Shown here one piece after another: positions 1,850 to 57,904 of a stretch of 64,000 bases of DNA; within the stretch, counting starts at the first letter, position 1, and every line of letters starts with the position of its first letter. Source of the DNA: Octopus vulgaris (lineage: Eukaryota); assembly GCA_951406725.2 (NCBI GenBank), contig OX597823.1:89094001-89158000 (forward strand), read 5' to 3'. The position numbers were made by a program, and so were the translations under genes. Under the pieces are notes generated by a model, which was not told the origin of the DNA, ran no database searches, and was given only the letters and a program-made list of their open reading frames with translations.

Positions 1850-3130
1850 TAACTCTACTCAACAATATATTCTTGGTAAGCAGAAATACATCTTATTAGA
1901 TAGTACTTCTGCTTAATAGGATTGTAACCATGCTCGATCCACTTCTTCATAAGAAACCGAATGGATTTAGAAGGGGCCGGCCAACAACTGCACAAATCCT
2001 CTCCACCCGTCGCATACTGGAAGAAATGAAAAATATCAACAAGAGAGACACAATCTATTTTGTAAACTTTCGCAAAGCATTTGATTCCATCAGCAGAGAT
2101 CTTATGTTTGATATCATTGTACTCTGTGGTATTCCTCCCAGGATAGTTGATGCTATCAGAGCACTGTATACAAACAACACTGCCACAGTTATAACCCCTG
2201 ATGGAGAGACTGATTTCTTTCAAGTTGAAGCAGATGTTCTGCAGAGTGACACACTCGCATCTTTCTTGTTCATCGTTGTTCTCGACTATGTTTTACGCAT
2301 TTCCCTAGGCGGTATGGATGAAAAGAGACTCTTTTTGAAACCCCACCAGAGCAGTTGGCATTGTACGCAATATTTAACTGATCTTAACTTTGCTGACGAA
2401 CTTGCCTTAATATCCCATTGTATTAAAGATGCAGAATCTTTGTTACAAGTACTAGAGAAAGTGGCAAACCAGGTTAGCCTTTACTGCAACGAGAGTAAGA
2501 CAGAGTTTATCACGACCTTCTCCAACTTAAATCGATCAATAATATATCAATCAAAGATGTTGACAACTTCAAATACCTTGCATCACACATACTAGACTCC
2601 CAAAATGACTTTAGCAGCTGCAAGGCTCTTGCTTGGGATACATGTAACAGAGTTGATAAGGCCTGGCACTCAAACCTTCCACCCAAGTTAAAAGTTAAAA
2701 TATTTAAAACACTGATTAAAGCAGTCCTTCTCTATGGATCAGAGACCTGGACCTTATCGGCTCTCTTAGAAAAACAGCTTGGAGGAACATATACCAACTG
2801 CTCAGAAAGATACAGAAAATCATTTGGAGATCACGTCCAACACTTAGCTACATCTACGGAAATCTGATACCAGTACCCCTCAAGCTAAAGCAGAAACGAC
2901 TACAATTTGCTGGCCACTATTACCGAGCAGAGAAAGAGGTTATCTCATCCGTGCTTCTATGGGATCCCTCCCGAAGTGTTTTCTCCTGGAAACTGACGTT
3001 TCCAGATACTATATCTCGGGATTCATGGATGGATATTAGAGGTCTGAACACATTAACGCAGGACCGTGTAGTGTGGAAAGAGGTTATCAATGGAGTTCCA
3101 ACCAACCATAGGATGGTGCAAGGATGATGA
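1850..3130 (+). mobile_element. 5'-truncated RTE-clade LINE (reverse transcriptase pseudogene)
   Basis: ORF 1930-2595 has NGFRRGRPT, FVNFRKAFDSI, VLQSDTLASFLF and DLNFADELAL (RT motifs; catalytic DD degraded). Frameshifted continuation gives VLLYGSETWTL and KRLQFAGH, followed by a short GAT-type tail. Confidence 0.92.
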
Positions 3131-17230: not shown

Positions 17231-18186
17231 AGGAGTGGCTGTGTGGTAAGTAGCTTGCTTACCAACCACATGGTTCGTCCGGGATCAGTCCCACTGCGCG
17301 GCACCTTGGGCAAATGTCTTCAGCTATAGACTCGGGCGGACCAAAACCTTGTGAGTGGATTTGGTAGGCGGAAACTGAAAGAAGCCCGTCGTATATATGT
17401 ATATAGTTTTTCCTTGGGGCAGGCCGGATCGGAGCGATCTCAATATTAATCAGCCGAAATTGCTAGGATGATCCGGTTCTTGACTGAAGATTGAAGGCTT
17501 CGAATGTCTTCTAAATGTTTTACGTTCTTGTCCCAGTTTGTATTTTTCTACATATAATATATATATACACTACCATCAGAAATTAATTAGCACCCTTGAT
17601 TTGCTCTTCACTCAAGGTATGTGCTGTCACCTAGTGGACCATATCTCGAACTATTGCTTTGTTGCGAGTTCACTGTTGCGCAGAACGATGACGTAACTTT
17701 GTTTGCAGAGCAGTTTGAGAGTCTACAGCCTTATGATGTTGACATAGCAGTGCAACAACTTGGAGTGCGGATGCAGACAAATCTTCTTTGTTTAATAGAT
17801 ATAGGTAGCGCCTCGCAAGGACCGAAATCACACCATACTAAGTTTTCTCAGTTTTCTCATCGCGTAAGACGTTTTGAACAGCTCATAGGTTAATTGATTT
17901 AACCTATTTAATGTAGAAATTTTGCTAATTAATTTCTGACGCAAGTGTATATACGTATGTGTGTGTGTGTTTGATTGTGTGTCTGTGTTTGACCCCCACC
18001 CCCAACATCGCTTGACAACCGATGGTGTGTTTACGTCCCCGTAACTTAGCGGTTCGGCAAAAGAAACCGATAGAATGAGTACTAAGCTTACAAAAAATAA
18101 GTCATGGGGCCGATTTGCTCGACTAAATGCGGTGCTCCAGCATGGCCACAGTCACATGACTAAAACAATTTAAAGAGTAAAATAGT
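17231..18186 (+). mobile_element. SINE family B split at its internal (TA)n by two insertions
   Basis: Head 17231-17400 (aggagtggctgtgtggtaag...gaagcccgtcg) and tail 17950-18186 (gcggtgctccagcatggccacagtcacatgact). Confidence 0.88.
17568..17947. mobile_element. Tc1/mariner-type MITE with TA target duplication
   Basis: TA|cactaccatcagaaattaattagca ... tgctaattaatttctgacgcaagtg|TA. Confidence 0.85.
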
Positions 18187-21416: not shown

Positions 21417-22422
21417 TAGGGTGCGTAAGGTATTTGAGAGCATACTTTTTGGGGGTCCTTGCTGCGTTTTTTGCTAACTGTATAAACTTTATTTCAGAAA
21501 ATAATAATGGCAGACTACTCAAGAAATGAAGAGGCATGCTGTTGTTATGATTATAAAGGCTGAGCAGAGTGATTTAGAAATAACTCAATTTTTAAAATTT
21601 GCCTGATCTATCGTCTACAAAGTTTGTAAGAAGGTAGAGACTGAAGATAGTAACGTATCATAAGTATTATAAGTACCTGAATTTATCCAGCAAGTTCAAC
21701 AGACCAATGATTACAATCCCAGAAACTCCATGAGGTCAATTGCAAAAGATCTCCATGTTTCAGAAATGTTGTCCACGAAGACATCAGATATAAGTTTTAT
21801 ATGATGGAGAAATGTCAAAGTGTAATGGATACAAAATTTCCTGCAACTTCCATGGGTTTAGGATTTCTCAGCAATGAAGTACATGCGATGCCTCGTTAGT
21901 TCTTTCCACAAGAACTTAGAGTTAACTCTGCCGCCTACATTGAGGTCCTGGAAGTTATTGTTAAGCTCTGGATAGACAGGGTATGCAATGGAAGGCCATA
22001 TGTGTTTCAGTGAGAGTCTGCACTATTACACATGACTCTAGTAACACAGGAATGGATGGCTAACAATTTTCATGATCACATATCCCCGAACATTTGGCCT
22101 CCTAATTCCCCAGATCTCAATCCATTGGACAATTACATGTGCAACGTTGTTGAGAGGTCAATGAACACGTCCATAACACCTAAGATTCTTTGAAAGCTGC
22201 CATAGTCAGAGTAATGTCCAAAATGAACCTGGATCACTTGATTCGAGCATGTAGTTGACTTAGATCTCATATAGAAAGAGTTATTGAAGCTTCATTGAAT
22301 AACATTATAGAAAGGAAGGTTTATTTTTATCCACATAACATTTTTTGATAAATAAAATTTATATCTGCTATTATCTGTTTTTATATAAACATAAATCTGT
22401 CCTCAAATATCTGACGTACCCG
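21417..22422 (+). mobile_element. Internally deleted Tc1/mariner (maT/DD37D-like) transposon
   Basis: TIRs gggtgcgtaaggtatttgagagca and tgtcctcaaatatctgacgtaccc. Transposase remnants MKRHAVVMIIKAEQSDLEITQFLK, GRPYVFQ*ESALLH (~FQQDSAPSH) and IWPPNSPDLNPLD. Family assignment is by motif only. Confidence 0.87.
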
Positions 22423-22457
22423 TTCTCTCTATATATATGTGTGTGTGTATATATATA

Positions 22458-22512
<55 letters not shown>

Positions 22513-22728
22513 GAATATAAACAAGAAGGGTAGTAATATTATTTACTACCAGGTGCCCAGCACAAAAGACGAATTAGTCATAAGACAAAAATATTATTCA
22601 TATAGAAGAATATTATTCATGTAGTTATACAATTAAGGGCTCCTAAATTAAGATGCCGAGTGCTGGGAACACAAAAAGGGGATGAATTTATCGAGAGTGA
22701 AAATCAAAAACGTTTACCGATAACTTTT

Positions 22729-22808
22729 ACAACTCGAACCGCGGTTTCTGCTTCTTTCTAGCAAAACACAGAATATGTTTGCTAAGGCTAGCTTCATCAG
22801 CGAGTCGC
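22729..22808 (-). ncRNA. Type-I hammerhead ribozyme (H1, left arm)
   Basis: Reverse complement of 23422-23501. Confidence 0.78.
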
Positions 22809-23421
22809 CTAAATTTAATCGAGGTCTGCGGCGATGTGGGACCATGTGTTGAACCCGACTACTAGCAGATTTTAACTTTTCAAATCTCTGCGCAGACGCA
22901 AAAATTTACACGGCATTATAGGGCATGCCGGGAAGAATTTTACGAATAAATCCATCATGTAATATACGAATATAAACAAGAAGCTAGCCTTAGCAAACAT
23001 ATTCTGTGTTTTGCTAGAAAGAAGCAGAAACCGCGGTTCGAGTTGTAAAAGTTATCGGTAAACGTTTTTGATTTTCACTCTCGATAAATTCATCCCCTTT
23101 TTGTGTTCCCAGCACTCGGCATCTTAATTTAGGAGCCCTTAATTGTATAACTACATGAATAATATTTTTCTATATGAATAATATTTTTGTCTTATGACTA
23201 ATTCGTCTTTTGTGTTGGGCACCTGGTAGTAAATAATATTACTACCCTTCTTGTTTATATTCGTAAATTACATGATGGATTTATTCGTAAAATTCTTCCC
23301 GGCATGCCCTATACTGCCGTGTAAATTTTTGCGTCTGCGCAGAGATTTGAAAAGTTAAGATCTGCTAGTAGTCGGGTTCAACACATGGTCCCACATCGCC
23401 GCAGACCTCGATTAAATTTAG

Positions 23422-23501
23422 GCGACTCGCTGATGAAGCTAGCCTTAGCAAACATATTCTGTGTTTTGCTAGAAAGAAGCAGAAACCGCGGTTCGAGTTG
23501 T
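23422..23501 (+). ncRNA. Type-I hammerhead ribozyme (H1, right arm)
   Basis: Stem I GCGACTCG/CGAGTTGT (8 bp, 2 GU); core CTGATGA 23430-23436; long stem II (GCT..TAGCAAA-CAT-attct-GTG-t-TTTGCTA..AGC); GAAAC 23482-23486; palindromic stem III ACCGCGGT; GUU triplet with predicted cut after 23493. Confidence 0.78.
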
Positions 23502-23596
23502 AAAAGTAATCGGTAAACGTTTTTGATTTTCACTCTCGATAAATTCATCCCCTTTTTGTGTTCCCAGCACTCGGCATCTTAATTTAGGAGCCCTTA

Positions 23597-23668
<72 letters not shown>

Positions 23669-23700
23669 TATATACATATGCAGAGAGAGGGAGAGTTAGT

Positions 23701-34141: not shown

Positions 34142-35154
34142 GATATTTACAAACTAATTGCAGTGTAAATAACGATATGAAGAATTTGCTCGAATTCACA
34201 AGCAAGTGTCTCTCTAAGCGCATCTTACAGTTTTAACAATGAAAAAGACAAGTTGGATAATGTAGTACTAGATATTCTAGGTCATCAAAAAAGATAGAGT
34301 AGTTATGATGCTAATACAAGAATTGACTTCATGCTTAAAAACATAAAGCAACCCAAAGAAACTGGTTATTTATGTTACATATGTATTACATATATAAACC
34401 AGTTCCATATAGAATGGTAACGATGAAGCAGAACTGGCTTTCAAAACTGAATTGTTCAACGCAAACAGAAATTACTAATTGGATGGTATAATGCAATTTT
34501 CAGGTCATTAATTTCGAGACTAAGTCTCTTAATATTTTCATCTACACTATGGATCAACAGAACCTGTGGCTCTCCATCTCAGATCATATGACAATATCTT
34601 GAAAGTACAGTGTTTATATTGCATAACGGAGAGCAGAGTTTATTACATCTGAAAAATGTCAGATAGTTCCCACCTGAATACCTTTGATTTTAAATCTAAT
34701 CGGTTGTCAAACATATGGTGCTTGTTTAATCCATAGGATTTGCTTGAACTGTGCAGACTATCTTAGATCAACATTGACACTCCCAGAGATTAGATTTTGC
34801 GATTCAGTTCTGAAATCTGATTTCGAAATCTGTTGAACTGTAGTAAATACTTGGCTAGTAGTGCCTAACATCCATTAAGATGTAATTCATGGTTGGTCAC
34901 TTTCTTATATAAGCCAAATCATGTGAGGAAGGATGACGTCTTTGGAGGACTCAAAACACATTATTTATTAAGTTTTCAATGCCATCATTCTGAAGGACAT
35001 ATTATTGGGAAGAGGTATTTATGTGGTATTTATGGTAAAAACAGCAGCTCATCATCTGAGGTACAGGGTCATCTTTGCTATGCAGTTCATTAGCAAGCAA
35101 TGTTCATACTCAAGGTTTATTAATCTAAACTCTATTATGATATATATATATATA

Positions 35155-36243
35155 TCGTCGGCTCCGGCTTACATTCGAGCATCCAGTCTCCTCTCCAGAT
35201 GTCTGTCCCGAATGTAGCTCTGGAGTCCAAGTCGTTGGTGAAAGAGTCGTGGGCAGAATTTGCGCAGGAGGGTCAATGCGAATCGAGGATGTTGAAGACG
35301 CTCCTTTCTTCTCCAGCGTTTTACTTATCCATGGCAATATGTTCCCATGAGGATGGCTCGAGGATAGGTTGAGCCGGGGTCCATTTAAGCTGGTCTTTAA
35401 AACGGAAGTTTGGGCCTCTTCTGAGTCTTGTTCCGATTGCAAGTTCTCCGAAGAGCATGATCCTCGGGAGACAAGAGGGTTCCATACACTGCAGGTGAGA
35501 CGAAGGCGAAGAATCGTAGCTTCAACGCTTGGTAGTGAGACGCGGCGAAGAACCTCATTGTTGTTAATGTGATCTTCCCATCGAATACTGAGGGACTACC
35601 GTAGTATGGATTGCTGAAAACATTCAAGGCGCTTGAAGCCACGGTGGTACAGCGTCCAAGTCTCACAAGCGTATAGAAGAGTTGATAGGACAATGGCAAG
35701 GAAGACCATGATCTTTATCCAGACCCGCGTGATTGTAGAATACACGTCTGCTGAGTCTACCGAAGGCGGAGTGGCTTCTCCAAGTTTTTTTCACACCTGG
35801 GAGTCTTCGGAAGAATACATGCAAGGTATGAGAGGTGCTCAAATTCTAGACGTTGGCCGTTGATGCTAATGTTCGAAGGTTCTCTGTTCTAGCCTGGTGC
35901 AGGTTGATTCAGGGTTTTGCTCTTTAATATGTTTACCTGCATCCCGAAGCGTTCATAAGCCGCGTTGTAAAGAATGCCGTCTTTTCTAGGCCTTCTACGG
36001 CATCTCATGGACTAGGATGGCGGTTTTGCACGGAGATGTGCGAGATTGAAGAGTCTGCAATCCAACCGTTAGCGCATGTTCATGGAAGACGAGTCCAGTG
36101 GGATTTCGTTGAACATGGCGGCCATGTACAAAGAGAAACAGATTGGTGCCAGAATGCATCCTTGCTTAAGTCTCTGAGTGATGGGAAACTGGTATGTACG
36201 GGCATTTTGACGACATACCCAACCCACCATGCCGTCGTGAAGG
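35155..36243 (-). pseudogene. RTE-clade LINE fragment (3' half of RT)
   Basis: Minus-strand QFPITQRLKQGCILAPICFSLYMAAMF (RT QG motif) and downstream RTE-type remnants; truncated at the SINE at 36245. Confidence 0.8.
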
Positions 36244-36738: not shown

Positions 36739-36744
<6 letters not shown>

Positions 36745-37427
36745 ATAGTTATCGCCATACTAATATGGCATTCTTATAAAAATAAGAAAAGCTGTCCGCT
36801 TATTAGCTCCATGAGGCCATCGCCTTAAGTTAGCTATTTGATACACAAACTGTATCCATATAACCTTCGAACAAGGGAGGCCTTAAGCTAACTTAAGGCG
36901 ATGGCCTCATGGAGCTAATAAGCGGACAGCTTTTTTCTTATTTTTATAAGAATGCCATATTAGTATGGCGATAACTATTATTTTCCGGGAACGCTGCCGC
37001 TGTTCTCTTTTAGAGAGACTTAGTTATTTTAATATTTCTATTATTGAAAACAAGTGGATGTATTCCACCGAAACTAGGTAAATAAAACCATCGAACAGAG
37101 ATTGTCGGAAGCGACACCTACTGGCTGGCTACGCTGCATTGAAAAGGGGCAATACCCCGAAACGCGTCTGTAGCTGCCGGTCAAGTAGTGTGGAGCGACT
37201 GACCTCCCTTGTTCGAAGGTTATATGGATACAGTTTGTGTATCAAATAGCTAACTTAAGGCGATGGCCTCATGGAGCTAATAAGCGGACAGCTTTTTTCT
37301 TATTTTTATAAGAATGCCATATTAGTATGGCGATAACTATTATTTTCCGGGAACGCTGCCGCTGTTCTCTTTTAGAGAGACTTAGTTATTTTAATATTTC
37401 TATTATATATTTCTATTTTAATATTTC

Positions 37428-37430
<3 letters not shown>
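36739..37430. mobile_element. Retrozyme-like element H2: 362-bp monomer (~1.44 units) preceded by a 142-bp inverted arm; inside (TA)n
   Basis: 36886-37044 is repeated at 37248-37406 (period 362). 36739-36880 is the reverse complement of 37203-37346 apart from a 2-nt homopolymer difference. Flanked by (TA)n on both sides. Confidence 0.92.
37133..37174 (+). ncRNA. Type-I hammerhead ribozyme with U3-A8 covariant core (H2)
   Basis: GCTGCA-TTGAAAA-GGGG-caata-CCCC-GAAAC-GC-GTC-TGTAGC. Stem I extends through GGCTGGC/GCCGGTC. Palindromic ACGCGT stem III; GUC triplet with predicted cut after 37168. Confidence 0.88.

Positions 37431-55905: not shown

Positions 55906-57904
<1,999 letters not shown>

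Follow-up and report, generated by a model that had tools for sequence, protein, structure and literature searches.

Non-LTR retrozymes of metazoans, described from coral, mussel and axolotl (PMC7229834), are non-coding, contain less than 50% GC and are built of tandem units, each of which carries a single type I hammerhead. Their stated unit length is 150-450 nt, and they co-occur with PLEs. Amphibian retrozymes (bioRxiv 10.64898/2026.07.22.740005) have a short palindromic stem III. That PLEs mobilise animal retrozymes from RNA circles has been proposed on the basis of co-occurrence and phylogeny (PMC7229834; bioRxiv 10.64898/2026.07.22.740005). Endonuclease-bearing PLEs (PMC8557442, PMC3846280, PMC11167929) insert into (TA)n as partial tandems with an inverted 5'-truncated copy and a tail at one end, and they carry a hammerhead upstream of their 3' ends and two start sites bounding the tail. 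A PLE protein was reported to extend both target strands in vitro, with starts at two internal RNA sites on either side of the tail; it is predicted to dimerise, and uncleaved RNA was its main substrate (PMC11167929). The one-ended tail and the inverted copy are known features of PLEs (PMC8557442, PMC3846280), the inversion has been ascribed to self-priming (PMC3846280), and the origin of both has been called undefined (PMC8557442). MRC1-type elements of Chlamys are non-autonomous and form multicopy head-to-tail insertions driven by PLEs; their 3' ends are similar to that of the helper, and hammerheads are absent from most of them (PMC8557442).

The element studied here lies at positions 22507-23604 of a 64,000-nt stretch of Octopus vulgaris DNA (contig OX597823.1), which we call the window. 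The element itself is of a known and ordinary kind. It belongs to a young non-LTR retrozyme family with a PLE insertion footprint, and the studied locus is a two-armed daughter of this family. The family shares with the animal retrozymes all the properties listed above, including the short palindromic stem III of the amphibian ones and the co-occurrence with PLEs, and its unit of 445-455 nt is at the top of their range. It differs from them in its two-armed inserts in (TA)n with fixed ends, here termed A and B; circles and cleavage are putative for it. The insertion traits of PLE-mobilised sequences are present: the partial tandem, the inverted 5' copy, the one-ended tail and the microsatellite target. 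In contrast to PLEs, the octopus family has no ORF, its tail is about 115 nt long instead of 30-40, and no homology to the fetched PLE families was detectable. Its hammerhead shares with PLE hammerheads (PMC4209133) an extra base between A9 and G10.1, the G10.1-C11.1 pair and a palindromic 15.2-16.2 region, but has a second extra A between C11.1 and G12, a long stem II and a full 6-bp stem I. Unlike the Chlamys elements, it combines a hammerhead with the lack of a matching helper among the PLEs found. A plant-type LTR retrozyme was rejected on account of the type I (not type III) topology and the tandem units, the target duplication being unreadable in (TA)n. An A/B footprint for retrozymes was not found in titles and abstract openings of the mostly open-access literature. 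The main text of PMC7229834 uses none of the words 'inverted', 'head-to-head' and 'microsatellite', and that of bioRxiv 10.64898/2026.07.22.740005 none of 'tail', 'head-to-head' and 'priming'.

The locus is not a simple array but a head-to-head pair of arms of 477 and 625 nt, made of a 455-nt unit and placed inside (TA)n. Monomer positions 1-455 correspond to 22980-23434. The following features were annotated:

22430-22511, no strand: (TA)n target microsatellite, left flank
22507-22983, minus strand: left arm, 477 nt by BLAST, monomer 268-455 followed by 1 to about 286, with its 3' end at site B (about 22510)
22731-22806, minus strand: complete type I hammerhead motif, core start at 22800, predicted cut after 22737, placed from the pairing of the arms
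22980-22983, no strand: head-to-head junction, a 4-nt overlap common to both arms
22980-23044, plus strand: 5'-truncated hammerhead without CUGAU and without the 5' strand of stem I
22980-23604, plus strand: right arm, 625 nt, monomer 1-455 followed by 1-170, with its 3' end at site A
23150-23265, plus strand: 'tail' between end sites A and B, about 115 nt
23225-23246, plus strand: hairpin 14-19 nt ahead of site B
23330-23342, plus strand: motif mostly kept across subfamilies 47-85% alike, a candidate promoter element
23424-23499, plus strand: complete type I hammerhead motif, predicted cut after 23493
23601-23679, no strand: (TA)n target microsatellite, right flank

The arms meet by their 5' ends, and their 3' ends continue directly into (TA)n. 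This architecture is directly visible in the assembly: the outer ends are unlike, the left arm stopping at monomer position of about 286 and the right arm at 170, each next to (TA)n. The 'tail' between A and B is found family-wide at only one outer end of two-armed inserts. A preliminary description of the DNA had reported an exact 455-bp period in both arms, about six differences between the copies and no recognisable ORF, and all three observations hold. The segment 22980-23149 recurs at +455 with one mismatch, and the inverted repeat has two registers, 455 apart. Six independent differences were counted, at 23508, 22560, 22608, 22871, 22916 and monomer position 287, the last of these being a difference of 23266 from the two copies in the left arm. 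Stop codons fill all three frames of each strand. The self-complementary helices cited earlier are indeed seen in the predicted fold, but the stability of the monomer exceeds that of its shuffles only slightly, both as a linear molecule (z -1.8; 4/100 shuffles as good) and as a circle (z -1.7; 4/60). The GC content of the monomer is 37.6%. The GC-rich conserved motif at 23330-23342 is similar to an NRF1-type site. A tandem-repeat finder run over the window did not detect the array, and the public contigs of four runs of unspecified type included none across the junction of this locus. The unit itself is present in public contigs from other sequencing runs. No run that contains it is listed as RNA. 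Contigs from four presumed-RNA runs, which carry no information on strand, ends or circles, cover it, and one of 480 nt wraps around its ends, as tandem DNA would too.

For the family, the genome (2.8 Gb, 227 contigs) was searched with the monomer and with two shorter queries. The best 40 of 1079 first-look candidates were scored for the monomer, and the best 40 of 509 and the best 40 of 794 for the shorter queries; these candidate numbers are not copy numbers, and taking the best 40 of each search biases the loci towards long, young copies. The 115 family loci fetched were merged into 68 distinct genomic sites. The family is dispersed over at least these 68 sites on many contigs, with (TA)n flanks and no LTR frame, and its other loci diverge from the studied one by 0.5-4.8%. 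Full units are mostly 445-455 nt long, with a mostly uniform length within a locus, and arrays reach about 9.8 units. Because of the 68 distinct sites and the unit in public contigs of other runs, the repeat is neither a chance arrangement nor a single-locus artefact, and the possibility of a single-copy sequence raised in the preliminary description does not apply. Its proposals of a retrozyme identity, reverse-transcribed origin, youth and multicopy nature are supported by the number of sites, the low divergence and a hammerhead core kept in 140 of 146 copies. A search with the hairpin pattern returned 36 matches, compared with one in the reversed control, and revealed diverged subfamilies that are 47-85% alike over the unit and retain it whole; a similar hairpin precedes their B ends. 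One second-subfamily array (L167:1136-1921) contains a (TA)n run at site A of one of its units, which may reflect re-cutting at A or the insertion of two copies into one run.

The most informative feature of the locus is the rule that its arm ends follow. Arm 3' ends were classed as A (monomer 140-180) or B (275-296), and arms lying head-to-head within 35 nt were taken as pairs. By this definition 41 of the 68 sites are two-armed and 27 single-armed, C8:28720428 being counted as single-armed solely because its gap is 36 nt. The 41 pairs, read directly from the arm ends, comprise 30 AB, one BB and no AA, plus ten with one end outside the classes. AB thus makes up 30/31 classifiable pairs against 0.5 expected (p=1.4e-8 against independence). 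Correction by hand raises AB to 35/41: three B ends had been shortened by a nearby substitution, and two ends lie at 188 and 196. From the ten, this leaves four that pair B with another point and one that pairs A with another point. Site A lies at about 170 of the monomer and site B at about 285 (range about 281-286). Part of the loci had been chosen by their B region; such a choice should raise the number of BB pairs, not lower it. A TA run follows 95/114 arm 3' ends. The 5' ends are scattered round the unit, and most junctions overlap by 0-7 nt. The earlier expectation that genomic copies begin at varied permutation points is therefore correct for the 5' ends and wrong for the 3' ends, which are fixed at two sites. 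Hidden micro-arms were searched for in the 27 single-armed loci; two plausible A-type stubs of 8-9 nt (C24 and C4:11478164) were seen and were not counted. In the second subfamily, inspected by eye, 11/28 loci, all picked for the B hairpin, are two-armed AB and none is BB.

These data support a PLE-type machinery. The locus is in our judgement probably a daughter of the dispersed non-coding hammerhead repeat family, likely written into (TA)n by a PLE RT-endonuclease and twin-primed on one RNA at A and B. Source copies would be transcribed, and their hammerheads, probably acting as dimers through the palindromic stem III, would excise RNA of unit length, to be closed into a circle by ligation. 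The A-B region would be bound by a PLE protein, which would cut both strands of (TA)n. Both cut DNA ends would prime on the same RNA, one at A and the other at B, and the two cDNAs would follow the template, often for more than one unit, before their far ends join over an overlap of 0-7 nt. The family offers a countable footprint of such events: its arms follow the A/B end rule, share a haplotype and in part are not nested, and this favours twin priming on one RNA over self-priming. It also provides a 455-nt substrate with mapped start sites for in vitro tests of PLE chemistry.

That both arms derive from one RNA is suggested by their haplotypes, which were compared at 36 positions segregating in the family. 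The sharing is observed directly: the two arms of one locus differ at 21/2025 comparisons (1.0%) and units within an arm at 60/4331 (1.4%), while different loci differ at 17509/67133 (26%). Conversion between arms is another possible source of this identity, but it would not produce the end rule. A linear monomer released by cleavage was not the template, since 69/114 arms are longer than 455 nt, the cleavage site lies within 87 of them, and this site shows no enrichment of 5' ends (5/114 arms, p=0.37). Both arms exceed one unit in 11 loci. Within-locus variants are mostly singletons (126/138). Minor alleles at positions covered in the partner arm are shared in register in five listed cases, one of them a clean site (C14 position 338, in both arms), versus 47 unshared ones. 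A second shared variant, at C14 position 55, was excluded as a product of misalignment around an insertion in stem III. The predominance of singletons and the rarity of in-register sharing lean towards a monomeric ring, and a circle is slightly favoured as the template over an uncleaved multimer.

A more specific version, which falls somewhat short of an even chance, would have one enzyme dimer hold a single RNA circle and prime both ends of the double-strand cut at sites about 115 nt apart, both active sites rolling round the ring before the cDNAs join. If it is true, the single ring accounts for the one-ended tail and the head-to-head inversion of PLEs, and the family constitutes sequence-level evidence of animal ribozyme circles as retrotransposition templates.

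The strongest alternative keeps the PLE twin priming but takes as its template, instead of a circle, an uncleaved linear multimer that is the transcript of a tandem source locus, with a ribozyme that is slow or used in another step. We regard this as possible but rather doubtful. Ribozyme mutants of the anole PLE left insertion unaffected, and unprocessed RNA dominated (PMC11167929); likewise, 8/9 Xenopus retrozyme dimers were uncleaved (bioRxiv 10.64898/2026.07.22.740005). The clean variant shared between the arms in C14 and the variants common to neighbouring units in two long arrays fit a heterogeneous multimer or later conversion. However, an aged array as the source should transmit differences between its units, which is at odds with the many singletons and with 47 unshared alleles against five shared, and the observed arrays reach about 9.8 units.

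The state of the ribozyme bears on both sides of this question. The motif scan of the window identified one complete type I hammerhead per strand at the locus, at +23430 and -22800. The plus-strand copy has a 6-bp stem I, CUGAUGA at 23430-23436, GAAAC at 23482-23486, a palindromic stem III, and a stem II with an extra A on both sides; Rfam at the gathering threshold gave no match in the window. Conservation of the motif is plain, the core being intact in 140/146 full hammerhead copies with only N7 and H17 commonly polymorphic. Stems I and III covary among 13 sequences: 92% of the cells are paired and 24 show double changes, a result reached by 0/500 shuffles; slid controls score lower, and these statistics ignore kinship. 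Stem II was left out of the test, as its register shifts. The core and stems look selected, as judged from these alignments, which counts against the multimer. On the other side, the predicted hammerhead fold is weak, exceeding the minimum energy by 3 kcal/mol locally and by 9 in the right arm.

At the studied locus itself, the ribozymes are unlikely to be productive. The preliminary description assumed one hammerhead per unit, which does not apply here: the copy with GUU at 23036-23038 is cut by the junction and has lost CUGAU, retaining stem II, GAAAC, the GUU and the 3' strand of stem I. A cut at this GUU could occur only in a two-ribozyme fold that borrows the 5' half of the downstream copy, as in the dimer model (PMC4209133). 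Release of a 455-nt monomer by cuts after 23038 and 23493, which had been proposed, is unsupported, because the first ribozyme is truncated and the arms would pair with each other. In a transcript reading through the whole locus, a 353-bp inter-arm hairpin is predicted that would bury all 76 ribozyme positions. Given the truncated first hammerhead and this predicted fold, the locus is probably a dead-end daughter and unlikely to be a good monomer source.

Twin priming on one RNA has also to be weighed against a second arm made as a fold-back, i.e., a self-primed copy of the first strand. This route has been proposed for head-to-head PLE copies (PMC3846280) and would account for the shared haplotype. 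The arms are nested in 32/41 loci, and several junctions are nearly symmetric (e.g., 138/138 and 216/221). But a fold-back requires that one arm lies inside the other, and 9/41 loci, including the studied one, fail this in either direction (one of the nine is marginal). Furthermore, a fold-back does not explain the position of the second end at a PLE-type second start site. The non-nested loci exclude fold-back as the general route, although it may still make some of the short arms; as the explanation of the locus it is improbable.

It is equally improbable that the unit is the pseudo-LTR of an undiscovered autonomous PLE, so that the copies are 5'-truncated PLEs and not an independent retrozyme. 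The PLE-type tail and inversion agree with it, as do the extra base after A9, known from PLE hammerheads (PMC4209133), and the relation of Xenopus retrozymes to pLTRs (bioRxiv 10.64898/2026.07.22.740005). Yet unit reads into unit up to about 9.8 times without an intervening ORF, and no ORF with RT and GIY-YIG is joined to the family copies examined, for which reason an autonomous PLE was rejected as the identity of the element. Neither the ORF listing of the first 60 loci nor tblastn with the PLE protein over L001-L155 showed such a joined PLE ORF. The sole PLE match in the first 60 loci is in L055 and belongs to a truncated, unrelated PLE at a distance of about 650 nt from the insert; the tblastn search added a short fragment in L108. 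Subfamilies only 47-85% alike retain the whole unit, and none of the 30 loci of these subfamilies has a PLE match.

A young PLE is resident in the genome. PLE families were sampled through the GIY-YIG domain (PF01541) only, scoring 150 of 6136 candidates. The resident PLE has many open frames of 781 aa with a GIY-YIG match above the cut-off and an RT match just under it, and it adjoins (TA)n. In L084:268-3971 and its relatives, a 479-aa frame precedes the 781-aa RT-GIY-YIG frame, with many open copies; no confident Pfam family was assigned to this upstream frame. The relatives carry a variant hammerhead motif in their repeats. All nine two-armed copies with both ends in view have a tail of about 40 nt on one arm only and so obey the rule seen in the retrozyme family, with the limit that seven of the nine were chosen for having a tail and a tenth row was dropped. 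An apparent second 'A' end in L089 was dismissed as a chance AT-rich match. Neither blastn nor an nhmmer profile detected homology between the retrozyme and the PLE families fetched, and a helper search by blastn, hairpin pattern and profile returned more retrozymes only. A PLE as the helper of the octopus family is a prediction from the footprint.

Finally, tandem and inverted copies might stem from satellite-type DNA amplification or assembly error, for which one could cite the proposal of local amplification (bioRxiv 10.64898/2026.07.22.740005), the neighbour-shared variants of the two long arrays and the missing public contig across the studied junction, but this is very improbable as the sites are dispersed on many contigs and each of them combines a 5' junction and a haplotype of its own with the fixed 3' ends.

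An snRNA-type promoter was sought in the monomer and is not supported. The best 20-mer matches to the U1/U2 upstream regions, taken without a shuffle control, are AT-rich with 13-15/20 identical positions, and nothing like the ATCAGT-containing element near -58 is visible in the monomer. Most U1 and U2 copies in L216-L245 have this element some 58 nt upstream, and two U2 loci, L221 and L228, are without it; it is probably the snRNA promoter element of the octopus genome.

Other hammerhead-bearing small repeats were seen in the flanks of L002, L012, L016, L019, L027, L049, L064/L097, L069, L099, L102, L106, L109, L113, L164, L167 and L176. Several of them directly adjoin family copies in the same (TA)n run, and the genome is dense in such repeats. 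The window contains an unrelated second hammerhead repeat at 36741-37430 with a variant U3/A8-type core at +37139 and a 362-nt period, which is also two-armed between (TA)n, with outer ends unlike by about 60 nt. A minimal hammerhead-like motif without a stem III loop lies on the minus strand at about 15478 of the window, with similar ones in L002 and L077. Immediately to the left of the insert (about 21550-22400) is a decayed Tc1/mariner-like remnant, and the motif near 22095 we take to be a transposase motif. LINE-like reverse transcriptase fragments were recognised by eye at 1900-3127, 35125-35714 and 56684-57701 of the window.
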